Below are positions 5,138-25,062 of a DNA stretch of 26,275 nucleotides, one piece after another. The stretch spans positions 1-26,275 of IMG/VR virus record IMGVR_UViG_3300035675_000026; one strand, 5' to 3'. The number at the start of each line of letters is the position of its first letter. Position 1 is the stretch's first letter. Source of the stretch: a virus (taxonomy: Duplodnaviria > Caudoviricetes). The notes beneath the pieces were generated by a model. The model had not been told where the DNA came from. It saw only the letters and a list, made by a program, of their open reading frames with translations, and made no database searches. A program made the translations under genes and the position numbers.

Positions 5138-5165
5138 AAGTTTTTAATGTTTTAATTCTTGACCT

Positions 5166-5789
5166 TTAGCTTACTCCTAATAATAGGTTATGCTTTGACC
5201 GTTCTGTTGTTGTTGGTGGCTCATATCCATACGGATATTCTGCGATATAGTCAAAATATGCATTACCAGTCGTGCTTAAATTATCATAATAAAATAATAT
5301 GTATGTCGGGGTTGATGCGTCATAAAAATTATAATATCCGTTCCAACTTGCTCCATCTATCCTGAATTGGTATTGGTCGCCAGCTGTCCATTCAATTTCA
5401 ACACAATACCAAGTATTAGCACTCCAAGTAGCCGCAAGATTATGATATCCCCCATTATCTCTATACTGCCATTTAGCTCCACCCTCTCCATTCATAGAAA
5501 CCATAAAGCAATCGTGATTTATATCTGTAGAATGAGGAACGTGCATCTGGAGATTATTTGAAGTTGAATCTAACCTTACATAATACGACATCCTTCCTGC
5601 ATCAACTCCCGTTCCAGCTCCACGTGCATATAATCCAGTGCTATTAGTATTATTATGAGCCGCGGCTGTTCCTTCAGATGTTACAGCTGTTTGAACTTTC
5701 CAAGTTTCTTCTCCTTCAACCCAAGTCCCATTACCGTTCAAATTACCAACACTATAACTATTAAAATCATCAGTAAGAAGTGTTGCCAT
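5166..5789 (-). CDS. Putative concanavalin-A/LamG-like beta-sandwich virion protein
   Basis: 207 aa. TDDFNSY start, WSANTWYCVEIEW...YQFRIDG and AYFDYI motifs resemble lectin-like jelly rolls. Hydrophobic C-terminus (LLLGVS). Confidence 0.55.
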   Translation of the reverse strand: MATLLTDDFNSYSVGNLNGNGTWVEGEETWKVQTAVTSEGTAAAHNNTNSTGLYARGAGTGVDAGRMSYYVRLDSTSNNLQMHVPHSTDINHDCFMVSMNGEGGAKWQYRDNGGYHNLAATWSANTWYCVEIEWTAGDQYQFRIDGASWNGYYNFYDASTPTYILFYYDNLSTTGNAYFDYIAEYPYGYEPPTTTERSKHNLLLGVS

Positions 5790-5790
5790 A

Positions 5791-6219
5791 TTATCCGATT
5801 ACTTTGTAAGTGAAATTGCCTATTGCTCCTTCTGTGACAAGCAATATCTTTACCGAATTGTCGGGCATATAAACCGTGACTGTTGCCTTGCTCGTAGGCA
5901 AATTATAGTCTTTAATCACTCCGTATTGTATCGTATTGTCTGCTATCTTTGAGGCGATATAATCAGTCAGTCTTACATAAAATGGAGTTGCTTTAGGTTC
6001 TCCTCCCCTCCAATAATAGTTAGTTCCATCTGTAACTACCTGAACCATATTCTCTGCCTTTGTGTCTATCTCATTGTCATATACGACAGGAATCGCTTTT
6101 ACTTGCCATCCCAAAGGAGCAAATGCACCAATCATATTGGTAACATCAGACCACTTGTCTTCTGTGGCAACAGAGGTATATTTTGCCTCTAACGCTGTAA
6201 TAAGTTCTGCTTTTGTCAT
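5791..6219 (-). CDS. Hypothetical virion-module protein (142 aa)
   Basis: Clean ORF, 1 nt from the next gene. Confidence 0.75.
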   Translation of the reverse strand: MTKAELITALEAKYTSVATEDKWSDVTNMIGAFAPLGWQVKAIPVVYDNEIDTKAENMVQVVTDGTNYYWRGGEPKATPFYVRLTDYIASKIADNTIQYGVIKDYNLPTSKATVTVYMPDNSVKILLVTEGAIGNFTYKVIG

Positions 6220-6238
6220 ATGTTATTTATTTAATTGA

Positions 6239-7621
6239 TTATACTTTACTCTTGAATCCGCTTGCATTTATTGATAATGACGATGCCGACCCTGTTGCTT
6301 CTGCCATCCAATAAGTGTTAGCTGTCCCCGCAAGTGGCGTTGTAAAGTGTGATGTTACCCCGCCAAGTGAAGGAACTGGGAAAGTCCATTTCTTCGTAGC
6401 CCCATCGCACATATTGACAAACAGGAATGTTCCACTTGAGTTCCCTATCGTCACATCTGTTAAGTAAACCTTTACCCCTGCTCCCCCTGCCGCAATAATC
6501 TCAACTGTTCCAAGACCTGAAGCCATAATTGTCCCTTGTCCCCTTACCACATCTTCAAGTCCACTGTTCAATCTGGTAATCAATACCCCATCTACCCCTG
6601 CATATAAATCTGTCCTGTCGTTATTAACTACTGCTGTTATGCCAGATAAAGCTGTGGTTGCCTTTGCCCCTACCTTTACTGGATTGCCTGAATCTGCTGA
6701 ATCGTGTGCTATATTGCCCAACGCCCAGATGCTTCCGCCTGATACTGTCTGGACATTACAAGTTCCGCTTGCAAGAAGCGTTCCACTTGAAATAGACATC
6801 AGGTTAGTGATCGTGTCTATGTTTATCGTTCCGGTTGATATAGTTCCCAAAGTAGCGACATTTATAGTTCCTTGTGCGTTAATCGTTCCCCCCGATATGG
6901 ATGAAACTGTGCTGACCGTATTTACATTGACCGTTCCCTGTGCGTTTATCGTGCCACCGGTTATTGATGTCACCGTGCTTACTGTATTTATGTTGCTCGT
7001 TCCCATCAACTGAATACTTCCACCAGAAACCCTAACTGTCCCTGAAGTCAATGTTCCGTCAGACATTATCAAACTTCCCACGGTAACAGTAGTATTTACT
7101 GTTCCAGAAGAAAGGACATCTATCGTTCCACCGGATATGGTGACGCTTGTGATAGCTGTGTTTATAGTCCCTGAACTGATGACCAGTTCGTTCCCTATGT
7201 TGACTGTTCCCCCTGACAAGGTTTGAACATTGCAAGTTCCACCAGAAAACAATGTTCCGCTTGAAATAGTTACAGAACTTCCTAACCCGAGATTAACTGT
7301 TCCTTCTGACAATGTGGTTATAGTCCCACTATTGACCACCACCGAAGGCGTATTGCCTATATTGACCGTTCCACTGGCTATCCTTACTGTCCCTGATGTT
7401 ATAGTTCCGTCAGCTATCTGAACAGAACCTACTGTCGTGGTGACTGTCCCTGCCACCATATTTACTGCGATGCTACCACTTGCCTCTGAATCAATGGAAG
7501 GAGAGGTCATCAGGTAGTATGTGGTAGCATCAACCCGCAAGGGTTGGACTGTCTGCGAGGCGTCATCGGTTACACCGCCTGACACGCTCACATAATTATT
7601 GTCTTTCTTTAATTCTGCCAT
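6239..7621 (-). CDS. Putative head fibre / beta-solenoid virion protein with Ser-Gly-Thr repeats
   Basis: 460 aa. Many (S/G)GT(V/I)N units, then GNIAHDSADSGNPVKVG and a C-terminal beta-sandwich. Confidence 0.65.
   Translation of the reverse strand: MAELKKDNNYVSVSGGVTDDASQTVQPLRVDATTYYLMTSPSIDSEASGSIAVNMVAGTVTTTVGSVQIADGTITSGTVRIASGTVNIGNTPSVVVNSGTITTLSEGTVNLGLGSSVTISSGTLFSGGTCNVQTLSGGTVNIGNELVISSGTINTAITSVTISGGTIDVLSSGTVNTTVTVGSLIMSDGTLTSGTVRVSGGSIQLMGTSNINTVSTVTSITGGTINAQGTVNVNTVSTVSSISGGTINAQGTINVATLGTISTGTINIDTITNLMSISSGTLLASGTCNVQTVSGGSIWALGNIAHDSADSGNPVKVGAKATTALSGITAVVNNDRTDLYAGVDGVLITRLNSGLEDVVRGQGTIMASGLGTVEIIAAGGAGVKVYLTDVTIGNSSGTFLFVNMCDGATKKWTFPVPSLGGVTSHFTTPLAGTANTYWMAEATGSASSLSINASGFKSKV
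6857..6988 (-). repeat. Tandem 22-aa (66 bp) in-frame repeat
   Basis: NTVSTVTSITGGTINAQGTVNV followed by NTVSTVSSISGGTINAQGTINV. Confidence 0.9.
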
Positions 7622-8315
7622 TTAATTTTGCCTCTCTATTTATTATTGTTTGTAATGCTGCTCTTAGTGCTTTTTGACGCTTTTCCAAGCGTATTACTTC
7701 TTTTTTAAGACTTTCTTCTTTGTTTATTAAAAAGTCGTTTGTCTTCTTGACCGCTTCCGACCTTTGGTCAAGTTTAAGACCTTGTATTTTTAATCCTTTA
7801 ATGAGCTTGTTCTCATATCCTTTCTTCCTTTCAAGCATCAGTTTTGTTTCTTTTAGGTCAGCTAACTTGTGTTCTTCCATCTCCTCCATCCGCTTGATTA
7901 TCCTTTTCTCTATCTCCATCTGTGCCTTTTCTTCCTTCAGCTTAATCTTATCTGCCTCTAATATATCCAATGCTTCGTGGTAGCTCTCCTTTGTCCGGCT
8001 GAAGTCATCTACTTCACGCTTCAACTGCCGTTCCTTGTCTTCTATGTTCATCAGGCTTGTCGTTATCGCCTGCTCCTTGTTGACATATTTATTGGTATAA
8101 CTCTCCCTTTCCTGCCTTATCCCTTCAAGCGTGTTATTGGCTATCACTATTTCCTCGGTAACCTCCCTTATCACATACTCCTTATTGTCCTGAAGTTCCT
8201 TCAGCTTCTTCTCCTCTATCTCGGTCTGCTTCAATATCCCATCCCTATAAGAAAGGAGTTCAAGGTATTCGTTTTCCAACCTTTCCCTGTATTTTTCTAT
8301 GTCTTGTAAGTCCAT
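7596..8315 (-). CDS. Long charged coiled-coil protein (~239 aa)
   Basis: E/K/R-rich heptads. Start moved to ATG 8315, which overlaps the upstream TAA (TAATG). Confidence 0.75.
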   Translation of the reverse strand: MDLQDIEKYRERLENEYLELLSYRDGILKQTEIEEKKLKELQDNKEYVIREVTEEIVIANNTLEGIRQERESYTNKYVNKEQAITTSLMNIEDKERQLKREVDDFSRTKESYHEALDILEADKIKLKEEKAQMEIEKRIIKRMEEMEEHKLADLKETKLMLERKKGYENKLIKGLKIQGLKLDQRSEAVKKTNDFLINKEESLKKEVIRLEKRQKALRAALQTIINREAKLNGRIKERQ

Positions 8316-9298
8316 TATTCTAACCAACCCCTTAATGATGTTGATACTACTGTTGATGCCTGTCCTGCCGTTACGCTAATCTTGGTATCTACTTTTTGAG
8401 GAATCGTTATCGGCAATTCAAATGGTCTTACTGCAAACTGGTCAACCAGATTCATTTCTGCTTGTGGATAAAATACTAATCCAGCTGAACCATAACCTAT
8501 CTTTGAATCATAAGTGGCTCTCAATGTTAATGTTGCCGTATTTCCTGTCGTTGACGCTTTAGTCACCCCAGCAGACATACTGGTAATGTGCATCGTCTTC
8601 CCTGCTGGGACTGTATAAACGCTATTCCTTGCTCTTGTCGCTCCTATTGCCAGTCTTGAATAAATCCTTGTGCCTGTATATGCACATATGTCTATGTTCC
8701 CTATCGCCCTGTATGTCGTGCTTGTGCTTCCGAATGATACTGCTCTGAAAGCATTTACCCTGTAAATAGTTCCCACTGAAGTATAGACAGTTCCAGTTCC
8801 ATTAAGCTCCACATCAACTGTTCCTTCTGAATAATTGCTGTCCAGATACCATACCCTTACGCTTTTAACCCCTGTTCCAGCTGGTCCATCGCTTGCTGAA
8901 CTTGATGCTACTGCCATAGTCCCTGCACTGGTAGGAAATACATAAGCAACACTTGCCGCCCATACATCTGTTTCTGTTGTAGTCGCTCCAGTTGAATAAC
9001 CTAATTTTTCAAATGGCGAGTGTCCGCTAATATCTCCTTCTGCTAAAGCATATAGATAGTCTTGGGAACAAATCTGCGGGGCGTCTGCATTAAACAATAA
9101 TCCCTTAACCGTTCCTGTCCCTTCATCATAGAATTTAACCCCTACCGAATCCAATGAGCTATCCAATGCCGAGTTCTCAACCAGAACCCTGTTAGTCGTG
9201 TCGTTTACCCTGACCAACCTAATCTCGTCAGATGTTTCTGACCATCCGGTCATTGACCCCTTGTAATTCTTCTCTATTTTACTGTTTTCTGATGCCAT
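8315..9298 (-). CDS. Putative virion decoration/fibre protein (327 aa)
   Basis: Thr/Ser/Gly-rich beta protein (DGPAGTGVKSVRVWYLD...VELNG; YTVPAGKT). N-terminus resembles that of 6239..7621. Confidence 0.6.
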   Translation of the reverse strand: MASENSKIEKNYKGSMTGWSETSDEIRLVRVNDTTNRVLVENSALDSSLDSVGVKFYDEGTGTVKGLLFNADAPQICSQDYLYALAEGDISGHSPFEKLGYSTGATTTETDVWAASVAYVFPTSAGTMAVASSSASDGPAGTGVKSVRVWYLDSNYSEGTVDVELNGTGTVYTSVGTIYRVNAFRAVSFGSTSTTYRAIGNIDICAYTGTRIYSRLAIGATRARNSVYTVPAGKTMHITSMSAGVTKASTTGNTATLTLRATYDSKIGYGSAGLVFYPQAEMNLVDQFAVRPFELPITIPQKVDTKISVTAGQASTVVSTSLRGWLE

Positions 9299-9635: not shown

Positions 9636-9636
9636 A

Positions 9637-9927
9637 TTAAAAATAGAAAGCTGTCATATCTAATGTCCCATCTATTGAAGCATAACATCCGGTCACAAAT
9701 GACACATCCCCCATATCGTAGTAAGTTGCCGACCCTGTCGGAAAAGCATTAACCAGTAATGGAACTCCGGCAGTAGTGTTGTCATACAGGGTTATGGTCG
9801 CTGTCCCTGTTGAGGTAGCAACGAAAATACCCCTCAATCTGCCATACCCCGTCTTGATGAGAGTCCCTGACGATGTGTTGTAATAGATTGGGCTGGTAAG
9901 CCCATAATCTTTTGCTGATAACCCCAT
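9637..9927 (-). CDS. Small beta-sandwich virion protein, paralog B1 (96 aa)
   Basis: About 56% identical (hand count, ungapped) to 9944..10234. Canonical SD GAGGAGGT 8 nt upstream. Confidence 0.8.
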   Translation of the reverse strand: MGLSAKDYGLTSPIYYNTSSGTLIKTGYGRLRGIFVATSTGTATITLYDNTTAGVPLLVNAFPTGSATYYDMGDVSFVTGCYASIDGTLDMTAFYF

Positions 9928-9943
9928 AATTTACTACCTCCTC

Positions 9944-10234
9944 TTAAAAATAAATGAATGTAGCACTAACCGTTCCTGCCAATACGGCATAAAGCCCTGT
10001 CCCGAAAGATACATCTCCCATATGGTAATAAGTCGCCCCTGCCACCGGAAACTCCCTTACTATCACAGGGTTTCCGTTTATCGTGTTATCAAGCAGTTCT
10101 ATTGAAGGGTCTAACTTTGCGGCATTGACAAAAATCCCTCTTAATCTTCCATATCCCTCTTTCACGCATTGGCTTGATGTAACCTGTTTTGATATTGGAC
10201 TTGTAAGACCGTAGTCTTTTGCTGATACTCCCAT
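9944..10234 (-). CDS. Small beta-sandwich virion protein, paralog B2 (96 aa)
   Basis: Shares MG.SAKDYGLTSPI, GYGRLRGIFV and ATYY.MGDVSF.TG with 9637..9927. Confidence 0.8.
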   Translation of the reverse strand: MGVSAKDYGLTSPISKQVTSSQCVKEGYGRLRGIFVNAAKLDPSIELLDNTINGNPVIVREFPVAGATYYHMGDVSFGTGLYAVLAGTVSATFIYF

Positions 10235-10312: not shown

Positions 10313-10732
10313 TTAAGCCTTCTTTCTTCTTCCGCCTCTCTTTTTAGGTTCTGGGGTAGGTTCTGCAGAAACTTCCTCAACAACCTCTTTTGGAGTTTCC
10401 TCCACTTTGACTTCTTCTACCGGCTTTTCCTCAAAGACGATTTCTTCCTTTACTTCTGTTTCAGCTATGATTTCCTGTGCTGGGACTGCCACTTTTCCGA
10501 GTATCTTCTCGGTAATGTCTTTCCTTTCCTTTGTTTCCATAGAAAAGTCCTTACCCTCGTCAAGAAGAATCCTGTCCCCCAAATGTTTGGCAAAGAACTC
10601 TGCCATAAATCTGGGAAACGCTTTTGTCTGACCAGGGGCGAATGTATATGGCTTCCCTCCAAATGTGTGCGTCCACTCCTTATCCGTTATGTTTGTGAAG
10701 TTGATTACTTCTAATCTTTCTCTTTTTTCCAT
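10313..10732 (-). CDS. Hypothetical head-module protein with acidic linker and basic tail (139 aa)
   Basis: Globular N-terminus, E/V/P-rich linker and KKRGGRRKKA end. AAAGGTCG leader. Confidence 0.8.
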   Translation of the reverse strand: MEKRERLEVINFTNITDKEWTHTFGGKPYTFAPGQTKAFPRFMAEFFAKHLGDRILLDEGKDFSMETKERKDITEKILGKVAVPAQEIIAETEVKEEIVFEEKPVEEVKVEETPKEVVEEVSAEPTPEPKKRGGRRKKA

Positions 10733-10755
10733 TGTATTGTTTGTTTATTTCTCCG

Positions 10756-10816
10756 ACCTTTATCTTACGGGCTCATCTCTACCGCCTCCGTAGCAGAGTG
10801 AACCCACAAGGAAGGT
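10756..10816 (-). promoter_or_regulatory. Long intergenic RNA hairpin whose base pairs with the AAGGT leader box
   Basis: Stems ACCTT/AAGGT, CTTGTGGGTTCA/TGAGCCCGTAAG and CTCTGCT/GGTAGAG on the minus strand. Confidence 0.7.
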
Positions 10817-11280
10817 TATATTGTCTGTCCGTAAAGATACGGATTTCTTATCTGTGCCTTGAATGTTCCTCCGGATATCCCTGCTGTCTGGGGATATGCC
10901 CCATAGATAGCTGATATTGCCGCTACTGTCGTTCCAACCAATGCGGTAGTCCCTGATGCGTATAGAGGACTTCCTGCGGAAACTGCTTCCCCAGCAGAAG
11001 CCCAACCTACACCGTCAATCAAGAACCAGCCGAATGTGTTTGAAATGATTGCTCCTTGAGCTATGGCAACCGGTCCGCCATCTGTGGCGGTCAATCTCGT
11101 AACAGAACCATAGGATAACCCATTGGTTGTCGTTACAAAGATAACCCAGTCATATTTCGCTACCGAAGTCGTTCCTGGTAGGTAGATATAGACATTGCCA
11201 TCTTTCGTCTTTGCCCTTGAACCTATCGTGAACTGCTGTGTTGTATCAACCGTATCTACTGGCGTAATAAGTTTTAGCAT
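10816..11280 (-). CDS. Putative capsid decoration (cement) protein, paralog A1 (154 aa)
   Basis: Downstream of the MCP. YIYLPG...VAIAQ...GWF.I.G motif. About 53% identical (hand count, ungapped) to 11300..11764. Confidence 0.7.
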   Translation of the reverse strand: MLKLITPVDTVDTTQQFTIGSRAKTKDGNVYIYLPGTTSVAKYDWVIFVTTTNGLSYGSVTRLTATDGGPVAIAQGAIISNTFGWFLIDGVGWASAGEAVSAGSPLYASGTTALVGTTVAAISAIYGAYPQTAGISGGTFKAQIRNPYLYGQTI

Positions 11281-11299
11281 AAGTTTCTTACGACAATGA

Positions 11300-11764
11300 C
11301 TATATCACTTGACCAAAGACCATTGGATAATTCAGCAGAACCATTCCAGTTCCTCCAGATGCTCCTGTTTGAAGTCCTATTGCGTTGTAAATCGCACAGC
11401 TGGCAACATAGGTGGTTGAAACGGTGGCTGTAGTTCCACAAGAATAGATAGGGCTTCCAGCGGAGAAAGTGTCCCCGACATTGCCCCAACCAATTCCGTA
11501 GATCTGAAACCATCCGTATTTCGGTCCGACAACAGCCGCTTGTGCTATCGCCACATTGCCGGCATACGCCTTAAGAAGCCTCGTTACCGAGCCATAAGAC
11601 AAGCCAGCACCCGCAGTCTTGTAAATGACCCAGTCGTATTTAGCAACAGAAGTCTGTCCAGGAAGGTAGATATATTCGCTTCCGTTCTTATCTACTGTCC
11701 TTGAGCCAACCGTGTATAATGCTGAAGAATCTACTTGGTCTAATGGTGAATGTAATTTAACCAT
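11300..11764 (-). CDS. Putative capsid decoration (cement) protein, paralog A2 (154 aa)
   Basis: Same length as 10816..11280 and aligns with it without gaps. Confidence 0.7.
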   Translation of the reverse strand: MVKLHSPLDQVDSSALYTVGSRTVDKNGSEYIYLPGQTSVAKYDWVIYKTAGAGLSYGSVTRLLKAYAGNVAIAQAAVVGPKYGWFQIYGIGWGNVGDTFSAGSPIYSCGTTATVSTTYVASCAIYNAIGLQTGASGGTGMVLLNYPMVFGQVI

Positions 11765-11857
11765 ATTTGTCTTAAATAAGTTTTTGACATACTTTGAACC
11801 TTAGAATTGTTTTAGTTCGCCAGATTCAAGCTACGAACCAACCTTTCGGTCTGACTA

Positions 11858-12512: not shown

Positions 12513-13589
12513 CTATGCTCCCGTTATTCCGTAGAGAATAGCCTGATTCCTCGGCTGGTTACAAATCAAGTTACCAACGAGGATGATGTGTCCGACCTTT
12601 CCATACTGGTCAACGGGTTTGTTGAATCCGCTGAAGCTGAATCCGGTTGTTGCCGGAATGCTGTATGGAGATTCAAGACCACCACCTGTGAACTTGACTG
12701 TCTTGTAATCTGGGTCTGTAGATTTAACGCCATAGAACGCCCAGTTCCTGGTGTTAAGCATATACATATACCCAGTTGTGCAATGTTCGTCAGCCACTAA
12801 AGGAACTCCATTCCAGTATAACGCCCTGAAACCGAGGTTGCCCCCGACTCCACCTCCCTGTGCTATCAAGTTCGGTAAGCCACCTGCGGTAGCTCCCACA
12901 AATGAAGTGTAGGGACTCTGTTGGACATTGTGCTGGACGGTTGGAGTAGCTAACTTCTCGTAATAACCCCAGACTGCTTTCGTGCATAGGATCAAGTTGG
13001 GAGAGTCAGAACCGTGGACACAATTGTTGTAGGAAGTTCTCATTCCTGCCAATGTGATGTTTCCACCGATGTTCGTGACTGAACCTGCTAATCCGTATGT
13101 CCCCCTGTCTAATCCGAGATAGGTGTCAGCTCCCAATGTGTCGTCATCGCAACCCTCCAAAAGTGAAAGGAAAGCGTTGCCGGCTTGGACTGCGAAGAAA
13201 GAATCTGCGATGTCGTGAGCCATATCCTGTGCGTCAGAGGCTAATCTCCTTGCTAACAAGTCAATCACCCTTTCTGATGCGTTCAGGTCTAATTCTATCT
13301 GGCTTACAACGCAGTTGATTTCCCTACCAGTCGGGTTAGCTGTGCCATATACGAAGTTGGAGCTTGAAGTCGTTGAGAACCTCTCAAGACCCGTGAACCA
13401 CATACCTTCGCTGTTCTGCGTGTATTTTATCGGAAACCTCATCTGACTTCCCCTCCACGGTTTCTGGTTTCCCAGAAAGAATAGTGTTGCTGGAGAATAT
13501 GTCAGCACCGTGTCCACCGTTGCGGCAACAAGATGCTCCATCGTAGAAGTAGATACATTCCAATTATTACTGCCTGTATAATCTGCCAT
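12513..13589 (-). CDS. Major capsid protein (HK97 fold expected)
   Basis: 358 aa, follows portal and scaffold, locally high GC. Ends LYWNGVPLVADEHC...YMLNT...GNLICNQPRNQAILYGIT, typical of phage MCP C-termini. Confidence 0.85.
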   Translation of the reverse strand: MADYTGSNNWNVSTSTMEHLVAATVDTVLTYSPATLFFLGNQKPWRGSQMRFPIKYTQNSEGMWFTGLERFSTTSSSNFVYGTANPTGREINCVVSQIELDLNASERVIDLLARRLASDAQDMAHDIADSFFAVQAGNAFLSLLEGCDDDTLGADTYLGLDRGTYGLAGSVTNIGGNITLAGMRTSYNNCVHGSDSPNLILCTKAVWGYYEKLATPTVQHNVQQSPYTSFVGATAGGLPNLIAQGGGVGGNLGFRALYWNGVPLVADEHCTTGYMYMLNTRNWAFYGVKSTDPDYKTVKFTGGGLESPYSIPATTGFSFSGFNKPVDQYGKVGHIILVGNLICNQPRNQAILYGITGA

Positions 13590-13661
13590 ATTCGTAATGT
13601 TTAATTGTTTAAGACCTTTCCGCCTCCAGTATATTAACTATCCTTTTGATGAGTGTAAGGT

Positions 13662-14282
13662 CTAAAACCAGTGTTCCCTCTTGAACTTCTCAAGAGAGCC
13701 GAGGTTTATCCCTTCTTGTTCATCTCCAGACGCTTTTGAAGATGTGCCTACTTTAGAACCTTCTTCTTGCCTAACCCTAACTTTGGCTTTGTCTATCTCT
13801 TTTCTCCCTTCTTCTCTGGCTTGTTTTATCTCAAACCATCTATCTGCCGCTTTGTTAAGGTCTGGTTCTTTCTTCGCAATAGCGTATCTAATCAAGGCAT
13901 CTTCATCATCTTTCGTCTTGATGACACCATCCGCCCTTAATTGATTCAATGTTGATTCAATATAAGTGTCGGCTTGGTGTTTTACTGCCTCTGCACGCAC
14001 TTGCTGTTCGTTGAGAATCTCCCGCAGTTTTCCAACTGTGAGATATTCGTCTTCGCTTGAAGAAGCACCAGTCTGCTTGTTAGTAGCATCAGCGACTGCT
14101 TGAAGGTTCTCCCTTATTTCAGACAATTCCTGTCTGGTCAGGGTATAACCTTTCTGCAACCCCTTTGCTAACTCGGCAACCTCGGAAAGAGTTGGTTCTT
14201 TCGTGGTTTCTTCGGATTGTTCTCCCTCAACTTGGTCATCGCTGACTGTTTCGGGGTCTTTATCCTCTATGTTTTCTTCCAT
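13662..14282 (-). CDS. Putative capsid scaffolding protein
   Basis: 206 aa, acidic disordered N-terminus plus coiled-coil, directly upstream of the MCP. Confidence 0.7.
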   Translation of the reverse strand: MEENIEDKDPETVSDDQVEGEQSEETTKEPTLSEVAELAKGLQKGYTLTRQELSEIRENLQAVADATNKQTGASSSEDEYLTVGKLREILNEQQVRAEAVKHQADTYIESTLNQLRADGVIKTKDDEDALIRYAIAKKEPDLNKAADRWFEIKQAREEGRKEIDKAKVRVRQEEGSKVGTSSKASGDEQEGINLGSLEKFKREHWF

Positions 14283-14362
14283 AATTGTTTGGTTAATATA
14301 CTAATAATACGACCTTGTAGCCCCCTATTTTAATTAACAACCTTTCTTCTTTTTTGAAATTA

Positions 14363-14515
14363 TCATACCTTTTTAGCTCTTTTCTTTAACGCTGACATAA
14401 CAGCGACCTTTTCTGGTAATGCCTTAATGTTTGGCGTATGTTTAGCCCATCTCTCTGCTGTCTTTGGCATCTTTGCGAACATATACCTCCTTTGTGATTG
14501 GGATTGGAATGGCAT
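14363..14515 (-). CDS. Small basic phage protein (50 aa, MPFQSQSQRRYMFAK...RWAKHTP...LPEKV)
   Basis: Below the ORF-track cutoff; read by hand. Resembles the MPFKSxxQRR small-protein type often found in phage head modules. Confidence 0.7.
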   Translation of the reverse strand: MPFQSQSQRRYMFAKMPKTAERWAKHTPNIKALPEKVAVMSALKKRAKKV

Positions 14516-14519
14516 ATTA

Positions 14520-16259
14520 TTATTGCTTTACTGCCTCCACTATTTTACGACCTTGTTGTAGCATTTCCTTTTGCTGTTCAGGTGGTAATTGCTGGAACTC
14601 TGGACTTTGCAATATGCCTTGCAACCTTTCCATCTGTGCCTGTGTTTCATCTCCTTGTGGTTGTTCTCCTGCCGGCATCGCTTGTCCTGGTTGTCCTGGC
14701 ATCATCGGTTGTTGCGGGACTATTCTGCCAGTCATCTGATACCATTCTATAAGCTCTTGGAATATCTTGTCTGGGTCTGGGTAGCCCATTTCCTCATAAA
14801 GCATACGAGGTGGAATCATACCTGAAGCTGATAATTGTTGTGCTTCTTCATACTTTGTCCTTCTGTCTATGGGCAAGGTAGAACCTTTCTTTACCATAAT
14901 CATTATGTTTTGTGGTATATCTTCTCGTTTTAATTCTATTGTTTCCTTACCATTTGAAAGTGTTTCTGCCCCGATTGAATATACCTTAATCATATGTAGA
15001 TAGGCGTTATACCATTCCTCTATCACTTGTTCCACATTCCTGACTATCAAATCTAACCTTCCCATATCAGAACTCATCAATAGTTGCCTGCCTCCCAATG
15101 TTTCCTGTTCTGCCCGTTCTCCTCTCGTTGTGGAATGAATGCCGATTATGTTATCAATCTCTGCTACCGAACTTGCCAAGTCATTGAATAGCGAAGCATC
15201 AGGCTTGCCGGACTGGACTTGTTGGACTGCATTAGGTTGTCTGGTCCTAACTGCCAAATCCCCTGTCTTGTTTATCAAAGACTGGACTACTTCTTCTTCC
15301 ACATTAGTAGTTACCCATACACGCTTCTGCCCTTCGTTTAAGTCCAATATCTGCCTTTTCTCTTGGGTTGCCCCTTCTTGTAATGGTATTGATTGTTCTA
15401 TTAAGGACGTATTATCATATAAACTTGTGTCGTCTCCTAAACTAAAAACACTTAAGAATAAGTATGGAAATTGTGGTTCCTCGAATATATTGTTACTTAT
15501 TTCCTCGTAATCAAAGTTAGGATTCTTCTTCTTTTCTAAAATGTATTGTCCTAACTTCCAAGCAACCCACTCTCCATTACCACCCCAGAACTCAATGTAT
15601 CTTATCTTACTCTTAGGTGTCTTTTCGCCTGCCACTTCTTGTATTTCCCTTTTCTTATTTGGAAACTTCTCTATTAAATTATCAACCCTGTCCTCTAAGT
15701 ATTCAAATATGTATTCGCAATCTTCTTTGCAGGTAGCTCTCCTGTCTATCCCTATCTTCCTTGTCAGGACGTTTTCAGTGGTATATCCATTCTCTATATC
15801 CCACCTGTATTTCATCACACCGAGCCTAAACAAAAACCAGTGCCTTAAAAGCATCTGGAGTTTTGATTGCAGTTTGTATGTTACTTCGTATGCGATCTGA
15901 AGCCCTTTTTGGATTCTCTCTTGTATCTCATTATTAGAAACGCCGACAACCGTGGGTTCAGGAACTTCAGAAGTAAGTATAGGTATAGCCGTTTCAACAT
16001 CGGTAAATATCCTATTTATTATTACTCTTGATTTTCTTTTGTGAATCCTTGATATGTCCTCATCTGTCCCGTAGCTCCAGAACATCTTATTCCTTTTCCC
16101 TATCTCATCTATCTTCTTCTTCAGGGGCATTGAGTCCTCTATTGCCTTATCAATAGCAGTAACAAGCTCGTCGTCAGGCTTGTCATACTCAAGATTCTGC
16201 CTAATAGAAACAGTTGTTTCTTTGTTTAATTCCTCCGTTGTTTGTATATCAAATGGCAT
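14520..16259 (-). CDS. Portal protein (P22/podovirus-like)
   Basis: 579 aa, directly after TerL. IGIHSTTRGE...ETLGGRQLL motif and Gln/Pro-rich C-terminal tail. SD AAGGAGG upstream. Confidence 0.85.
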   Translation of the reverse strand: MPFDIQTTEELNKETTVSIRQNLEYDKPDDELVTAIDKAIEDSMPLKKKIDEIGKRNKMFWSYGTDEDISRIHKRKSRVIINRIFTDVETAIPILTSEVPEPTVVGVSNNEIQERIQKGLQIAYEVTYKLQSKLQMLLRHWFLFRLGVMKYRWDIENGYTTENVLTRKIGIDRRATCKEDCEYIFEYLEDRVDNLIEKFPNKKREIQEVAGEKTPKSKIRYIEFWGGNGEWVAWKLGQYILEKKKNPNFDYEEISNNIFEEPQFPYLFLSVFSLGDDTSLYDNTSLIEQSIPLQEGATQEKRQILDLNEGQKRVWVTTNVEEEVVQSLINKTGDLAVRTRQPNAVQQVQSGKPDASLFNDLASSVAEIDNIIGIHSTTRGERAEQETLGGRQLLMSSDMGRLDLIVRNVEQVIEEWYNAYLHMIKVYSIGAETLSNGKETIELKREDIPQNIMIMVKKGSTLPIDRRTKYEEAQQLSASGMIPPRMLYEEMGYPDPDKIFQELIEWYQMTGRIVPQQPMMPGQPGQAMPAGEQPQGDETQAQMERLQGILQSPEFQQLPPEQQKEMLQQGRKIVEAVKQ

Positions 16260-16263: not shown

Positions 16264-17859
16264 TTATTCCTCCTTTATTATTTTACGTATTTCAGGAGCT
16301 AATCCTGAATATGTTTTCTCTTGTTTTTGCCAATCCAATACCTCCGTTCCTCCTTTAATTCTATCTAAACCTAATCTAAAGTAATTGGTTGCGTGAACAA
16401 AATGATCTTCACCTGTTGAATCCCAAACATCTACGTCATTACCAAGACTATCCTTCTCACTTGTTTTGTATAATGATTCCCAATGATTAATATAAATCTT
16501 TAAATCTTCTGGTAGCATCTGAAATCTTATTTTCCTATTAACCATCTCATCTATAACTTGTTGTATTAACTTACTTCTATCACAATAAACTGTGTGTGTC
16601 TTTTCATCCCAGTTAATAAAATCTGCTTTCCTAATTTCCCTCTTATAATAGTTTAACCATACTATACCGGGATACTTTTCTCTTAGCTTCCTTGGTTCTG
16701 TTAAATCTGGCAACGCATCAAATACTGCCATCTCTACATCATAAATCTTAATTAGTTCTTCTATCTCTTCCCATTTATCTGCCACACCCATCTTGAATAT
16801 ACCTTGCTCATTCCCTATAACCCAATGCTTCTTTAATCCTGAATCTGCACCAAGTATATTCCTTTTCATAAAATTTGGTGCCTTGTTATCTATATTCTTT
16901 AAGATAATATCCTTATTAACGCATACTTCTGAACCAATATAGGGTAATCCTAAAACAAAATTGTAAAAGTATTGCTTTGTCTTTGTTTCGTATTCTTCTT
17001 GTATCTGACTAGCCTTAATCCACGGACACATCATATGATTAATCCAATAACCTGATATGTCCTTATTTTTAAACTTCTTTACCCATTGACCATTCCTTCT
17101 AGTATCGTCTAATATCTCCTTTCCACATTTACTACATAAAAACTTGTAATCTTTAACGTTTTTAAAATAATCTAGATATTGCCATTCATTACAATGTTCG
17201 CATTTGATAAACCAATGTTTCTGGTCGCTTCTTTCATATAACTTCTGGCTTAATGTTGCTGGTGTTGTTGGGTTACTAAAATACCATCTACCCGCATAAT
17301 TACTAGCGCTTAATCTAGATTCATACTGTTCCATTATTCTTTGGTCACTTCTATCACATTCATCGTGCACATTTAAATCTGAACTTATCATAATACCTAC
17401 CCCTGCTTCTGTAGATTCATCATCCTTTCTACTTATTGTATGACCCTTTGTTCCTCTATAATGAATAAACGCATCGCCTACCTTCTTCTGTAATACACTA
17501 TCCTTGTCCTTTGTCCAGTAACCTAATATCGGATTTTGTGATATCAAAGGATTTACTTTTGAAGGAACCATCTTACCTACATCACTAAACGTAGGAAATG
17601 TATAAATAATGTTCCAGCCTTTAAATCTTGCAGCCCAGAACGTCTTTAATATCTCCATTACAGTAAACCCTATCTGACTTGATTTCCTTACTACCTGTAT
17701 CTGTGTAAAGTCATTATAGATACTTCTTAAGAACTTATGGTTAATAAATTCTAGTTCATCTCCTTTCTCGTTCTTAAGCTTTGAATCTAGTATCCAGTAT
17801 AAACAATTTAAAGACCATTCCGTATTCTTGTATTTAATTATGCTTTCCTGCTCATTCAT
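16264..17859 (-). CDS. terL: Terminase large subunit, lambda gpA-like
   Basis: Walker A VVRKSSQIGFT, Walker B VHDECD, FSNPT coupling motif, CEHC...CSKC zinc finger, FYNFVLGLPY, nuclease GADSG and DHFVHA. Confidence 0.9.
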   Translation of the reverse strand: MNEQESIIKYKNTEWSLNCLYWILDSKLKNEKGDELEFINHKFLRSIYNDFTQIQVVRKSSQIGFTVMEILKTFWAARFKGWNIIYTFPTFSDVGKMVPSKVNPLISQNPILGYWTKDKDSVLQKKVGDAFIHYRGTKGHTISRKDDESTEAGVGIMISSDLNVHDECDRSDQRIMEQYESRLSASNYAGRWYFSNPTTPATLSQKLYERSDQKHWFIKCEHCNEWQYLDYFKNVKDYKFLCSKCGKEILDDTRRNGQWVKKFKNKDISGYWINHMMCPWIKASQIQEEYETKTKQYFYNFVLGLPYIGSEVCVNKDIILKNIDNKAPNFMKRNILGADSGLKKHWVIGNEQGIFKMGVADKWEEIEELIKIYDVEMAVFDALPDLTEPRKLREKYPGIVWLNYYKREIRKADFINWDEKTHTVYCDRSKLIQQVIDEMVNRKIRFQMLPEDLKIYINHWESLYKTSEKDSLGNDVDVWDSTGEDHFVHATNYFRLGLDRIKGGTEVLDWQKQEKTYSGLAPEIRKIIKEE

Positions 17860-20179: not shown

Positions 20180-20194
20180 AAGGTGGGGATAACT
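20180..20194 (+). repeat. 15-bp repeat AAGGTGGGGATAACT, copy 1 (contains a DnaA-box-like 9-mer)
   Basis: Identical copy at 22301..22315. The minus strand reads TTATCCCCA versus the DnaA box TTATCCACA. Confidence 0.7.
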
Positions 20195-20198: not shown

Positions 20199-20227
20199 TT
20201 GCTGGTTCTGTTTCAATAATTTATAAT
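20199..20227 (+). promoter_or_regulatory. Rightward sigma70-type promoter
   Basis: TTGCTG-N17-TATAAT upstream of ATG 20264. Confidence 0.55.
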
Positions 20228-20263
20228 AAATTATTAAAGGTCGTAGAATAAAAAATAAAAATT

Positions 20264-20443
20264 ATGTCAAAAAAAATTAAAAAATTAGTCATAAAAAATA
20301 AAAAAAGATGCTCAATTTGTCAAAAAATGTATAGTGGTTTTGGAAATAATGCCCTTCCAATTAATACAGGAAGATGTTGCGATAAATGTAATAGTTTAGT
20401 AGTTATAGCAAGAATTAATCGACTCTACTATCCTATTTTATGA
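20264..20443 (+). CDS. Small zinc-finger phage protein (59 aa)
   Basis: MSKKIKKLVIKNKKRCSICQKMYSGFGNNALPINTGRCCDKCNSLVVIARINRLYYPIL. AAAGGTCG leader and ATGA coupling. Confidence 0.8.
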   Translation: MSKKIKKLVIKNKKRCSICQKMYSGFGNNALPINTGRCCDKCNSLVVIARINRLYYPIL

Positions 20444-20631
20444 AAGATTTAACAGCAGAACAAATTAGAAATCTAAGTCCTTTTAGATTAAGAGAATTTT
20501 ATCTTCAAGGATTAACAATGGAACAAATTGCAGAAAAATGTGGTGTTGAAAAAACACTAATTAAAAGAAGATTCCATGAATACAAAACAAAAAGAGTCAA
20601 TGAAAGATATCATTGGATAAAAGGAAGATAA
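20440..20631 (+). CDS. Small helix-turn-helix DNA-binding protein
   Basis: FYLQGLTMEQIAEKCGVEKTLIKRRF. Confidence 0.75.
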   Translation: MKDLTAEQIRNLSPFRLREFYLQGLTMEQIAEKCGVEKTLIKRRFHEYKTKRVNERYHWIKGR

Positions 20632-20632
20632 T

Positions 20633-21064
20633 ATGAAAATAGCATCAGCAAAAGCAAAGGGTAATTTATTAGAAGACTTCATTGTTGATTGGTTAAGAAA
20701 TTCTAAGCTAGATACTCGCGCTTATAGACAAAAGGGTTCTGGTAGTGGATTAAATAAAGGTGATATTTGGAATTCTCTTAACATACACTTTGAATGTAAG
20801 AATCAAAAACAAGCATCTTTTAAAGAGTGGTTTAGACAGATTGAAGAAGAAAATGTATCAAATCTTCCTGCTGCTCTTATTTGGCACTTGCCACAAACTG
20901 CTCTTGAGAATAGTAAAGTAGTAATCGATTTGTGGTTCTTTGAGAAACTTTTACAACACTATAGAGAAAAAAGAACAGTCGAAACACCTAATAAAGAAAT
21001 CAAATACTTATTAGAAAGAATTAAAACAGACGCTCATCAGTTAATTAAAAAATTAGAAGATTAA
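20633..21064 (+). CDS. Putative Holliday-junction resolvase (Hjc-like PD-(D/E)xK)
   Basis: SAKAKGNLLE...RQKGSG...KGDI...FECKNQK. Confidence 0.7.
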   Translation: MKIASAKAKGNLLEDFIVDWLRNSKLDTRAYRQKGSGSGLNKGDIWNSLNIHFECKNQKQASFKEWFRQIEEENVSNLPAALIWHLPQTALENSKVVIDLWFFEKLLQHYREKRTVETPNKEIKYLLERIKTDAHQLIKKLED

Positions 21065-21134
21065 ATACAAGTTGATATAGTTTCCTTGTGCTATATTAGC
21101 GAAACCAGTCGCAACCTGTGAAAAAGCTCATTTA

Positions 21135-21911: not shown

Positions 21912-22302
21912 AAAATACGATTCAGAAGCAAAAATATACTGGGTTAAGAAATTAGTGAAGAGTTCGGAATGGTCTAGTTACTATTCTCAGATTTCTAGTT
22001 ATTGTTTTCTTGGAAAAGATATTAACGGAGTATGGATTGGATTTTTAGTAGCTGATAAAATTCCATTTAGTTGTGTAGAAATTACCGATCCGATTGAATT
22101 AAAAAGAATTCGTGATTATAGAAAAGAAAGAAACATAGCTCCATTACCTTTTGAAATTGAGGAAATAGAATCAAAAAAAATAATTGATGAAGAAGATATT
22201 ATTGATAAAGAAAATGATATTGATGTCAAAGAATTATTCAAGAAAGACGACAATAATGATGACAACCTTTGGGATAATGTAAATCCGGATGAGGCATTCT
22301 AA
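21901..22302 (+). CDS. Hypothetical protein with very acidic C-terminus (133 aa)
   Basis: Overlaps the end of the initiator. Asp/Glu-rich tail ending DEAF. Confidence 0.7.
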   Translation: MSNKKYDSEAKIYWVKKLVKSSEWSSYYSQISSYCFLGKDINGVWIGFLVADKIPFSCVEITDPIELKRIRDYRKERNIAPLPFEIEEIESKKIIDEEDIIDKENDIDVKELFKKDDNNDDNLWDNVNPDEAF

Positions 22303-22315
22303 GGTGGGGATAACT
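22301..22315 (+). repeat. 15-bp repeat AAGGTGGGGATAACT, copy 2
   Basis: Identical to 20180..20194. Upstream of the strong promoter. Confidence 0.7.
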
Positions 22316-22353
22316 CTTATTTTTCAAGGGAATTTGATGGTATGTCAAAGAGG

Positions 22354-22382
22354 TTGACATAATGCCTTCAGTATCATATAAT
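22354..22382 (+). promoter_or_regulatory. Perfect-consensus sigma70 early promoter
   Basis: TTGACA (22354-59), N17, TATAAT (22377-82). Confidence 0.9.
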
Positions 22383-22440
22383 GAAAATGTAGAGGTAAAT
22401 ATAGAGTTAACTAAAGGTCAAAGAAAATAAAAAAAATAAT

Positions 22441-22611
22441 ATGAAAAAAATAATTTACGACGAAGCAAAAGCAAAAGAATTTTTAAGAATAAAGGAAATA
22501 TATTTGAAGCAAGAAAGAAGGATGAATGAATTAATAAGAAAAAATATAATCACAGAAGAGACGGCAAAAAAGTATTTAAAAGAATTAAGTCTAAAAGTGT
22601 TCGGTAAATAA
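22441..22611 (+). CDS. Small basic early protein (56 aa)
   Basis: MKKIIYDEAKAKEFLRIKEIYLKQERR...VFGK. First gene after the consensus promoter, with an AAAGGTCA leader. Confidence 0.7.
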   Translation: MKKIIYDEAKAKEFLRIKEIYLKQERRMNELIRKNIITEETAKKYLKELSLKVFGK

Positions 22612-22637
22612 AAGGTCGAAGAAAACAAAAAAATAAA

Positions 22638-22895
22638 ATGAAAAAAAATATGGAAACACCAAGCAGATCAAAGAGATTTCAAAATGCATTAGACAAGTTA
22701 TCTGATGCTAGGTTTGAAATAGAAGAGTTAAGAGATGAGTTACAAAACTGGTTAGATAACATGCCAGAAAATCTTCAACAGAGCAACAAAGCATCTGAGT
22801 TAGAAGATGCTATTAACAACCTTGATGATGTTGTTAATAATATAGAACAAGTTGAAGGAGAAGCAAATGTAACTTTTCCCGGAATGTTCTCATAA
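22638..22895 (+). CDS. Acidic helical-bundle early protein (85 aa)
   Basis: IEELRDELQNWLDNMPENLQ...LEDAINNL amphipathic helices. Confidence 0.8.
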   Translation: MKKNMETPSRSKRFQNALDKLSDARFEIEELRDELQNWLDNMPENLQQSNKASELEDAINNLDDVVNNIEQVEGEANVTFPGMFS

Positions 22896-22933
22896 AAGGC
22901 CGAAAAAAATAATAAAATAAAATAAAAAATAAA

Positions 22934-23098
22934 ATGAATAACAACATAATACCTGAATTAAAATTCTGGTTAGAAGAAAAAGGAATTAAAGGATTAACAG
23001 AAGAAGAAATGGAAGACCTGGACGGAAAAGCGTGGGAGGAAATTGATGCATTAATGGACGAAAACATTGAAGCGTGGGTAGAAGAGATAAAAGAATAG
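22934..23098 (+). CDS. Very acidic early mini-protein (54 aa)
   Basis: MNNNIIPELKFWLEEKGIKGLTEEEMEDLDGKAWEEIDALMDENIEAWVEEIKE. 18 D/E versus 5 K. Confidence 0.75.
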   Translation: MNNNIIPELKFWLEEKGIKGLTEEEMEDLDGKAWEEIDALMDENIEAWVEEIKE

Positions 23099-23154
23099 CT
23101 TTTGACCTCGCCTCTTTCTCGCAAGAGCAGAAGGGGGCGAAGATGAGGAGCTAT
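23095..23154 (+). promoter_or_regulatory. Long hairpin with 4/5 internal loop and GCAA tetraloop (candidate RNase III site)
   Basis: ATAGCTTTT/AGGAGCTAT, TCGCCTCTTT/AAGGGGGCGA and CTC-GCAA-GAG. Confidence 0.6.
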
Positions 23155-23188
23155 CCTCAAAAGGTCGTTAAAATAAAAAAACAAAAAT

Positions 23189-23509
23189 ATGAAAATTCTA
23201 ATTCAAAATGGTTCAATAGTTAAAGTAGATGGAAGTGTAATAATTATTGAATCAAAAGACGAAACAAAACAAGTTTCTAAGAAAGAGAGTATTAATTTAC
23301 CTACTTATCAAAGTATCCACAATAAGAAAGTTAAAAGTCCTTGTGTAATTTGTGGAAATAAGCTTGGTAAATATAAGTGGAAAGTTTGTAGTAAGGCCTG
23401 TGCAAAAATTAGATGGAACGAATTAACCAGAAAACGTCTTGCTAAGAAAAGGGCGTTACAAGAAGATAAATTAAATAGAATTAATGTTCCCGTTAGGTGG
23501 GAAGAATAA
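23189..23509 (+). CDS. Zinc-finger protein (CxxC...CSxxC)
   Basis: CVICG...KVCSKAC followed by a basic helix. Confidence 0.75.
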   Translation: MKILIQNGSIVKVDGSVIIIESKDETKQVSKKESINLPTYQSIHNKKVKSPCVICGNKLGKYKWKVCSKACAKIRWNELTRKRLAKKRALQEDKLNRINVPVRWEE

Positions 23510-23538
23510 AGGTCGAGTAAATTAAAAAAACTTCTAAT

Positions 23539-23865
23539 ATGAAATTATTTCAAACCCTAGAAGAAAAAAAGAGACACGCACAAGCAATACTGGCTGATGA
23601 ACTAGAAAGTTTAAAGTATTACAAGAAGCACGAATCAAAGGATGACTATGTAATTGGAACTAATTTTAGAACCAATTTACAGGATACAGAATTAAAAATT
23701 GAAGCATTACAAGATTTTATCGATAACATCGATAAGATGTTAAGAGAAGGTGCTAGTCACGATGAAGAATTGGCAATGTCTAATAGAATGACAAGAGATG
23801 AATTACTTGAATCAGAAATACAAAACGATTGGGTGAATGAAAATGCACCTGATAAGGAAGAATAA
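23539..23865 (+). CDS. Hypothetical acidic protein (108 aa)
   Basis: Clean ORF with an AAAGGTCG leader. Confidence 0.75.
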   Translation: MKLFQTLEEKKRHAQAILADELESLKYYKKHESKDDYVIGTNFRTNLQDTELKIEALQDFIDNIDKMLREGASHDEELAMSNRMTRDELLESEIQNDWVNENAPDKEE

Positions 23866-23967
23866 TCAGCCATTTATCCTGCTCCTGGGCTCGTTCTAGT
23901 TAACAGTCGTCGTAATGGCATGATTCCAGGTGGGACTTGCTTGGGAGCAGAATTAAGTGGCGGATTA
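23863..23967 (+). promoter_or_regulatory. Long-stem structured RNA upstream of the Cas4-like gene
   Basis: TAATC-A-GCCATTTA / TAAGTGGC-G-GATTA and CTGCTCCTGGGC / GCTTGGGAGCAG enclose a 48-nt interior. Confidence 0.6.
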
Positions 23968-23986
23968 ATAATTAAAATAAAAAAAT

Positions 23987-24847
23987 ATGAATAATAGTTG
24001 GAGCATACAAGAATTTGAAAATGCTTATTTAGAATTTCAAATGAAAAGAGGAGATCAGAAATCAGATTACTGGAGAGGAAGTGATATGGGTGCTTGTGCT
24101 AGAAAAAGAATATATACAAGAAAAGGAATACAACCAACAGAATTGATAACTTCACGACAACATAGAACAATGGATGTTGGAAATCTCTTTCATACAAAGT
24201 ATCAAAGATTTTTCAAGAAACTTGGAATACTGATAGAAAAAGAAGGAGAAATTGTCAATGAAGAGTATCATTTTAAAGGTCACTTTGATGCTCTTTTAGG
24301 TGGAATTCCTAAACCTGTGAGAAAGGAAGATTTTACTTTTAAAGGTAAAGATGGTAAAGAATTCTTCAAACAAGACGAATTTGATTGGTTTAATGGGTTT
24401 CTCAGTGGTTTGAATCAGAGGTTCCCTACTGGATTACCTCTTCTACTCTATGAGTTAAAAACACAACACTCAATGTCATTTCAGTATATAGAAAAAAAAC
24501 CACAACCTGAACATTATTATCAGTTATGCTCTTATCTCTATTTCTTAAAAGATAAGTATCCAGAACTCAAAGAAGGTAGAATACTCTATATTAGTAAAGA
24601 TGATTCTCGTTTATGTGAACATATAATTAGATTAAATGATGAAACAATTGAACAAATTGAGAGTGAACTTAAACAACTTAATGAGTATTGGAAGAAAGAT
24701 GAATTACCTCCACAACTTGAAGAAATAGAAAACGGTAGAATAAATTGGAAATGTTCATACTGTCCCTTTTTAACTCATTGTAGAGGAGAAGGGTGGGTCG
24801 ACATAGTATCAAAAAAGATTAAAGGATTAAAATCAAAGAAAAAATGA
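23987..24847 (+). CDS. Cas4-like PD-(D/E)xK exonuclease with Fe-S cysteines (phage recombination nuclease)
   Basis: SDMGACARK, GNLFH, GHFD, YELKT, QLCSY and CSYCPFLTHC (1+3 Cys). Confidence 0.85.
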   Translation: MNNSWSIQEFENAYLEFQMKRGDQKSDYWRGSDMGACARKRIYTRKGIQPTELITSRQHRTMDVGNLFHTKYQRFFKKLGILIEKEGEIVNEEYHFKGHFDALLGGIPKPVRKEDFTFKGKDGKEFFKQDEFDWFNGFLSGLNQRFPTGLPLLLYELKTQHSMSFQYIEKKPQPEHYYQLCSYLYFLKDKYPELKEGRILYISKDDSRLCEHIIRLNDETIEQIESELKQLNEYWKKDELPPQLEEIENGRINWKCSYCPFLTHCRGEGWVDIVSKKIKGLKSKKK

Positions 24848-25062
24848 GAATTAATAAGATTCCTCAAAAAATTGAGAATTTAATTGAAGCATATTCTTGT
24901 TGTCTTACCCCTAAACAAAAAATTATTCTTGAATTAAAGTTTTGTAATAGAAAAAAAATATCTGAAATTGCTAAAATACTAAGATTAACTGAAGAAAGAA
25001 TTCATCAGTTACAAGAAAGTGCGATTAAAATCTTAATAGAGAAAACAAAGGTTGTAAAATAA
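24844..25062 (+). CDS. Sigma70 region-4-like HTH protein
   Basis: LTPKQKIILELKF...ISEIAKILRLTEERIHQLQESAIKIL. Confidence 0.8.
   Translation: MRINKIPQKIENLIEAYSCCLTPKQKIILELKFCNRKKISEIAKILRLTEERIHQLQESAIKILIEKTKVVK

Follow-up and report, generated by a model that had tools for sequence, protein, structure and literature searches.

Recruitment of ribosomes by pairing between messenger RNA (mRNA) and ribosomal RNA (rRNA) is of a known kind. The Shine-Dalgarno (SD) sequence lies 4-12 nt upstream of start codons, and upstream ribosome binding or standby sites in E. coli, which often use SD-like motifs, contact the 30S subunit upstream of the start region and raise expression; neither a GGUCG consensus nor helix-26 pairing is named for such sites in the available part of the source (bioRxiv 10.1101/2025.04.04.647229). 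The termination upstream ribosome-binding sites (TURBS) of caliciviruses and influenza B act on the eukaryotic 40S subunit, where motif 1 (UGGGA) pairs with the helix 26/expansion segment 7 (ES7) apex; they need a flanking P1 helix and serve reinitiation after a stop codon, while domain IIId of hepatitis C virus (HCV)-type internal ribosome entry sites (IRESs), which are large folded RNAs of eukaryotic viruses, pairs its GGG with the CCC of ES7 (PMC11921876, in the portion of the text accessible to us). Here we describe an element of IMG/VR virus record IMGVR_UViG_3300035675_000026 (Duplodnaviria; Caudoviricetes), a complete record of 26,275 bases which, in its whole length, is referred to below as the window. 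A tag, AAAGGUCG (hereafter the box), precedes the start of 12 genes of this phage by 19-32 bases and, judged from sequence comparisons, has about an even chance of being a ribosome-tethering translation enhancer whose core, GGUCG(A), pairs with the loop UCGACC of 16S rRNA helix 26. Although pairing of this kind is known, the site is not known to be so used in bacteria, as far as could be found.

The box is like the SD sequence in being a short purine-rich sense-strand tag upstream of starts, with a similar predicted duplex strength (-7.1 to -8.6 kcal/mol for core and loop, -7.0 kcal/mol for GGAGG and CCUCC). Unlike it, the box lies 16-45 nt upstream, is without a complement in the 16S 3' end (-2.1 kcal/mol with CCUCC), is enriched where the anti-SD has been lost and marks a minority of genes; the statement of the initial annotation that it is not an SD sequence was thus upheld by both its position and the 16S 3' end. 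As with TURBS, a short motif is complementary to the helix-26 apical loop and stands at a variable distance from the start codon, sometimes at a stop-start junction. The box is, however, bacterial and without a flanking helix (an upstream hairpin arm at 4 of 148 boxes, namely 3/81 viral, 1/57 host and 0/10 from the window, with an A/U-rich downstream flank), it also leads the first genes of transcripts, and most copies follow the upstream stop codon or stand at transcript heads, a minority lying in the upstream coding end. For TURBS the pairing is proven, according to the same partly available source; for the box it is only predicted. HCV-type IRESs dock at initiation on the rRNA helix proposed for the box, but the box is an 8-nt tag. 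E. coli standby sites resemble the action proposed for it in contacting the 30S subunit upstream of the start region. Bacteroidota non-SD leaders are likewise A/U-rich, unstructured and without an SD sequence; those lineages keep but hide the anti-SD, and in Bacteroidota contigs the box pattern opened a real gene only sporadically. The box is therefore a member of neither the SD nor the TURBS group, although it would work like both. No description of the motif was found in the literature searched, which was partially covered, with supplements and most subscription papers outside.

Within the window, AAAGGTC occurs 13 times (mean 3.9, largest value 9, in 100 shuffles), with 8 copies in leaders, 5 within open reading frames (ORFs) and all 13 on the coding strand. 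Twelve of 43 hand-picked leaders carry the octamer with at most one mismatch at least 16 nt before the ATG, compared to a mean of 0.47 and a maximum of 4 in 5000 leader shuffles, and only 1 of 1120 letter permutations of the octamer reaches 12 leaders. A sense-strand, positional signal had been proposed in the initial annotation, and both this and the coordinates, sequence and gap to the ATG of all 11 boxes given there proved correct. SD-like words at their usual position are not enriched in the phage (3/44 leaders vs 1.4), and no Rfam family matched the window at gathering score. In the phage 23-28% of leaders carry the box. In the host stretches that were examined the share does not exceed about 7%, too little for a general SD substitute; since the box marks a minority of genes, it would supplement other start modes rather than replace them.

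On the minus strand, AAAGGTCA (5160..5167) lies 22 nt before the ORF at 4949-5137 and overlaps the stop codon of the ORF at 5166-5789, while AAAGGTCG (10754..10761) lies 21 nt before the ORF at 10313-10732. The major capsid gene is preceded at 22 nt by AAAGGTCT (13612..13619), and the ORF at 13662-14282, a scaffold gene by position only and without a family match, at 27 nt by CAAGGTCG (14310..14317); both boxes are kept in the related phage locus L002, the second with a changed spacer. Another CAAGGTCG (14548..14555), absent from the initial annotation, lies within the last part of the portal gene and precedes the ORF at 14363-14515 by 32 nt. On the plus strand, AAAGGTCG (20236..20243) is found 20 nt before the ORF at 20264-20443 and AAAGGTCA (22413..22420) 20 nt before the ORF at 22441-22611. 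Next come AAAGGTCG at 22611..22618, overlapping the upstream stop codon 19 nt before the ORF at 22638-22895, and the variant AAAGGCCG at 22895..22902, which also overlaps the upstream stop codon, stands 31 nt before the ORF at 22934-23098 and would have one predicted pair with helix 26 broken. Further copies of AAAGGTCG lie at 23160..23167 (21 nt before the ORF at 23189-23509) and at 23508..23515 (overlapping the upstream stop codon, 23 nt before the ORF at 23539-23865), and the variant AAAGGTTG (25047..25054) lies inside the end of the ORF at 24844-25062, 22 nt before the ORF at 25077-25736, which encodes a protein of the single-strand DNA binding family. Four of the 12 boxes thus overlap the upstream gene's stop codon and two lie inside its coding end. 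The fixed distance of about 21 nt that had been proposed does not hold, as it is 19-23 nt in nine boxes but 27, 31 and 32 nt in three. Genes uncoupled from their neighbour, which the box was thought to mark, are indeed favoured (10/23 vs 2/20, P = 0.02), but the box also occurs outside this set, and other phages and the host genome G004 have copies within the upstream coding end.

A strict pattern (box, A/T spacer, ATG) was searched for in half of the genome collection, with taxa grouped by record title, and matched 120 genome stretches, 54 of them titled Patescibacteria. The ATG of the pattern opened an ORF of at least 50 codons in 48/54 Patescibacteria, 9/53 other taxa and 7/13 unnamed stretches. 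Among viral contigs the pattern was present in 67 stretches, and 41 of 57 distinct sites opened an ORF compared to 5 of 36 for a control octamer; after five overlapping loci had been dropped and the pattern hits removed, the other leaders of the 62 remaining viral loci held AAGGTC 83 times (5.7 expected). A homologue of a window protein was detected in only one of the 67 loci, which are only about 6 kb long; as the signal is used in loci without detected homology to the window, it is not particular to this phage.

Leaders of host genomes were taken from crude gene calls (first ATG of long ORFs). AAGGTC was found in 19/500 leaders of G003 (1.9 expected), 27/363 of G004 (2.4) and 3/208 of G001 (0.7), three genomes chosen since they matched the pattern, and AGGTCG in 3/132 leaders of G321 (0.3 expected). 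The leader box was at chance in G002, G221, G284 and in 7/7 genomes outside the class of G003. Phylum-wide use was rejected, as a loose pattern did not exceed its reversed control in most of 201 genomes and the strict pattern gave 34 matches against 62 control matches (our own count of the table). Use outside Patescibacteria was likewise rejected: in the Melainabacteria genome G598 the pattern scored 12 vs 2, but a long ORF was opened by one of the five distinct sites examined (of six), and no 16S gene was found in the five genomes of this check. The link to Patescibacteria guessed in the initial annotation therefore stands insofar as the box is common to Patescibacteria genomes, but it belongs to part of one class and not to the phylum. 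The record of G003 is labelled Saccharibacteria. Its class is probably Paceibacteria (Parcubacteria), because among 84 16S ends in the class 44 are without CUCC, 8 partial and 32 intact, near the 48% anti-SD detection reported for Parcubacteria, a group in which the anti-SD is missing from about half of the members (PMC9297842, in the sections available); 16S identity of G003 to G001 and G004 is 75-83% over long segments, which does not settle the class.

The shared tag suggests a Paceibacteria-type host for the phage, as does G560, one of 2 among 401 class genomes matched, where a terminase 43% identical to that of the phage lies in a prophage-like region of a contig of more than 169 kb. Support from G560 is modest because the capsid query had no match there (nor in G404). 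Host assignment from the names of 120 terminase homologues was abandoned, as these gave one organism label, and that came from a 5-kb contig of a Nanoarchaeota bin. Box-led genes also occur on short contigs assigned to archaeal and cyanobacterial bins (L046, L094, L095 with two boxes, and L111), which are possibly misbinned Patescibacteria or phage DNA.

The distance from the end of AAGGTC to the ATG was determined over 1,635 leaders (388 de-duplicated viral, 1,203 host and 44 from the window). There were 4 instances at 0-15 nt, 103 at 16-31 nt and 49 at 32-47 nt, against a background of 7.7 per 16 nt. The distribution has a sharp floor, with no instance at 12-15 nt and 9 at 16 nt, and trails out to about 45 nt; the antisense word gave a flat profile. 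The floor at exactly 16 nt is mainly viral, and hosts begin at 17 nt. A floor with a loose ceiling is what would be expected of a tether outside the mRNA channel of the ribosome. The consensus of 114 intergenic cores is A 85%, A 90%, A 95% (the last A being partly built into the search), GGTC and G 75%, followed by A/T-rich sequence; in G003 and G004, the base next to AAGGTCG is A in 20/27 cases, compared with about half of bases in the spacer. The mean unpaired probability of the core (0.45-0.49) had no control and was not used.

A DNA element, whether a -10 or -35 recognised by an alternative sigma factor or else a one-sided regulator site, would be suggested by the resemblance of GGTC to extracytoplasmic function (ECF)-type -10 elements, by the stress genes among the box-led host genes (GrpE, Hsp20, peroxiredoxin, rubrerythrin) and by the small sigma-70 region-4 protein that the phage encodes. 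It is quite improbable, as in 54 host and 144 phage instances the 1-45 nt upstream contain no conserved base other than the A's, no partner -35 box was found, distances to -10 hexamers are scattered over 1-60 nt (those to TTGAC are scattered too), and a -35 would need more room than the gaps of 16-23 nt allow. Many host TATAAT stand directly before the ATG, so that a promoter -10 would be expected there, yet the box is almost never within 15 nt of the ATG. Two phage boxes follow sigma-70 promoters at 8 nt (TATAAT 20222-20227, box at 20236) and 30 nt (22354-22382, box at 22413), distances which the initial annotation had given correctly. Its view of the box as an mRNA-level element fits better than a promoter, because there is no conserved upstream partner, the floor is at 16 nt and 6 of 12 boxes lie on or inside an upstream gene end; the ribosome recruitment it had added remains our inference as well. 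As a separate observation, G001, G004 and other host stretches have TATAAT or TAAAAT at -14..-5 and TTGACA further upstream of the ATG, which suggests many leaderless mRNAs.

Two further readings at the RNA level bear on the same data. A processing or stability signal (a nuclease site or block) at the 5' ends of abundant mRNAs, acting without ribosome contact, would account for boxes that often stand 1-12 nt after a -10-like hexamer, near the likely transcript start, and for those at intercistronic junctions, and genes for abundant proteins are often stabilised; it accounts neither for the hard 16-nt floor nor for the link with anti-SD loss, and is improbable. Mimicry of a tRNA variable loop (AGGUC, then G), read by a tRNA-binding factor, is scarcely credible: among 67 tRNA calls in G003 and G004 stretches AGGTC is present in 12 and AAGGTCG in 2, but AAAGGTCG in none, and neither a tRNA-like fold around the box nor an Rfam match in the window was seen.

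The initial annotation had proposed that the whole octamer be compared with 16S rRNA. Its full complement, CGACCTTT, and GACCTT are both absent from the 16S rRNA of G003 and G004 and from the 23S rRNA of G003; only the core is complementary, to UCGACC. This word occurs twice in each 16S gene of G003 and G004, once in the 8-nt loop of what we take by position to be helix 26 and once in a stretch predicted to be paired; the Paceibacteria helix-26 loop reads UAUCGACC. Among the complements of all 6-mers in these 16S genes, that of UCGACC, GGUCGA, is the most fold-enriched in leaders (48 vs 3.1). The loop word is present in 55/55 genes in the class of G003 and 32/56 outside it (P = 5e-9, uncorrected for kinship); within the class the first two loop bases and the stem vary, while changed or missing loops are found outside. 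The pattern exceeded its reversed control in 44 genomes without CUCC (150 vs 88) and not in 32 with CUCC (69 vs 72), a contrast with P of 0.004-0.01, uncorrected for kinship. The anti-SD is lacking in all 3 pattern-selected genomes for which a 16S match was obtained, and the 16S 3' ends of G001, G003 and G004 contain neither CCUCC nor any box complement. Helix 26 (16S positions 837-850) is unexpectedly conserved in Parcubacteria, with role unknown according to the available text of Tsurumaki et al. (PMC9297842).

Under the pairing reading, GGUCG(A) would base-pair with the exposed UCGACC loop and the small subunit would thereby be held, through its loop, on the side where the mRNA exits; an A/U-rich spacer of at least 16 nt would then thread through the subunit, placing the AUG in the P site, and longer spacers would loop out. 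The three leading A's, unable to pair with the loop, may contact the minor groove of the helix-26 stem, for which H-type pseudoknots offer an analogy.

Box-led proteins of G003 and G004 were scanned for families (62 of 63 found, one 2,353-residue protein being left out), and about half had no family match at 1e-10. The families include EF-Tu, L7/L12, ATP synthase c, GroES, GrpE, SSB (in both genomes), S6, S7, S8 and L2, as well as two KH proteins, an RRM protein, pilin-like proteins, Hsp20, peroxiredoxin and rubrerythrin, and the tuf leader of G004 carries two box copies. This gene set fits an enhancer for abundant proteins, although it is suggestive only. At atpE the core was found in 3/11 anti-SD-less and 0/5 anti-SD-positive genomes, all intergenic. 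In the rplJ leaders of many class genomes (L345-L393), a GC-rich hairpin and T run lie 15-30 nt before the start, and an L10-leader switch could hide or show the box at rplJ; as a general reading, a terminator arm was rejected, being rare overall and real only in rplJ leaders. A perfect box also stands before a gene for a cyclase-like protein of the cyclic oligonucleotide-based antiphage signalling system (CBASS) type (L331:681-1544, minus strand, in G003), whose match is below the family cut-off.

Several observations weigh against pairing with helix 26. There is no covariation, the loop being invariant in the box-using class, and the three changed-loop genomes G047, G204 and G104 have neither a compensating motif nor any such box. 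Chance alone would be expected to supply a 5-6-nt complement at some point in a 16S gene. AAGGTC and AGGTCG come out as the strongest words, and the AAA, although conserved at 85-95%, is non-complementary, while AGGGTC, a better complement, shows hardly any enrichment. Opposite the loop's C (fifth core position), 18/32 G004 boxes have a mismatch; phages show no preference for A at the sixth core position and are enriched in AAGGCC, a non-pairing variant (6 vs 0.6). G197 and G027, which have the same loop outside the class, and the anti-SD-less G221 are without the box, and G002 and G284 are at chance. At rplL the core lies within 70 nt in 9/30 anti-SD-less loci, 1/20 anti-SD-positive ones (20 of 29 loci fetched) and 0/26 outside the class (26 of 30 loci examined), but this enrichment is confounded because most of the nine lie in rplJ codons. 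In rplJ leaders, AAGGTCG or GGTCG is often the 3' arm of a terminator-like hairpin, also in anti-SD-positive genomes. Lastly, anti-SD-less genomes keep GGAGG at the normal SD position on some genes, which pairing does not explain.

The conserved AAA and the tolerated mismatches would be explained if the box were an mRNA element read by an initiation-promoting protein, the helix-26 match being due to chance. The reader could be bS1, some other 30S protein that has gained a lineage-specific extension, or an RNA-binding protein not attached to the ribosome, such as an RRM or KH protein; RRM and KH genes are themselves box-led, and many ribosomal proteins of the candidate phyla radiation (CPR) differ in length (PMC9297842, available sections). 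bS1 binds beside helix 26 (PMC11800381, from the part accessible), so its reading of the box would give a similar floor; according to the same source, changes to helix 26 are partly tolerated. A protein reader is unlikely, though far from negligible: it does not account for the finding that precisely the complement of the core stays invariant within an exposed loop, and no candidate protein was identified.

Taking pairing with the helix-26 loop as the preferred reading, a wider proposal can tentatively be made, to which we give somewhat less than an even chance. Parcubacteria-type bacteria that lose the anti-SD would have a second mRNA-rRNA docking code, in which the leaders of genes for abundant proteins form a trans pseudoknot with the helix-26 loop, the rRNA handle also used by TURBS and HCV-type IRESs, and their phages would use it as their main ribosome-binding signal. 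If the pairing is true, mRNA and rRNA would make contact at initiation in bacteria away from the 16S 3' tail, in convergence with the docking of eukaryotic viral RNAs, and the contact is possibly an orthogonal translation handle. The reading also supplies a testable reason for the strong conservation of helix 26 in Parcubacteria, which the part of PMC9297842 available leaves open. Even if read by a protein, the tag likely marks phages of these hosts, which are hard to assign otherwise, and it could help start-codon calling in these genomes.

GGAGG or AGGAG at the SD position was found enriched in the CCUCC-less genomes G003, G310, G221 and G321 (L214-L223, L244-L263; 11-14 leaders vs 2.5-5.7), mostly before small or unfamiliar genes. 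It may be a gene-transfer relic or have a partner acting in trans.

The minus strand of the window encodes the terminase large subunit, a portal-like protein, the major capsid protein and virion proteins, and the plus strand replication, nuclease and small genes. The box-led major capsid gene (12513..13589, minus strand) matches phrog_9953 (E 1.5e-26), whereas the terminase large subunit gene (16264..17859, minus strand), which served as the query for relatives and for the host hint, is without a box. The promoter at 22354..22382 (plus strand) is a consensus sigma-70 promoter, TTGACA-17-TATAAT (12/12), upstream of a run of small genes with five boxes. Among relatives, the capsid gene and the putative scaffold gene are both still preceded by boxes in L002; in L003 some genes are box-led, with no box found before those two, and no clear box was seen in L011.

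Two tandem paralogous small-gene pairs lie at 9637-10234 and 10816-11764 (minus strand), encoding 96 amino acids twice, with near-identical starts, and 154 amino acids twice, both phrog_29386. The leader of the virion gene at 11300-11764 (window 11765-11857, minus strand; L002 about 8928-9030; L003 about 8672-8775) looks like a conserved pseudoknot, with a GTTCG/CGAA stem and a loop that pairs with a downstream 7-mer, and matching changes in all three phages in an alignment judged by eye. Just upstream of it, about 75 nt from the ATG, is a box-like AAAGGTTG (AAAGGTCG in L003). Finally, the two plus-strand promoters share an identical 15-mer, AAGGTGGGGATAACT, upstream of them (20180-20194 and 22301-22315, plus strand); it may be an operator, and resembles a DnaA box on the opposite strand.

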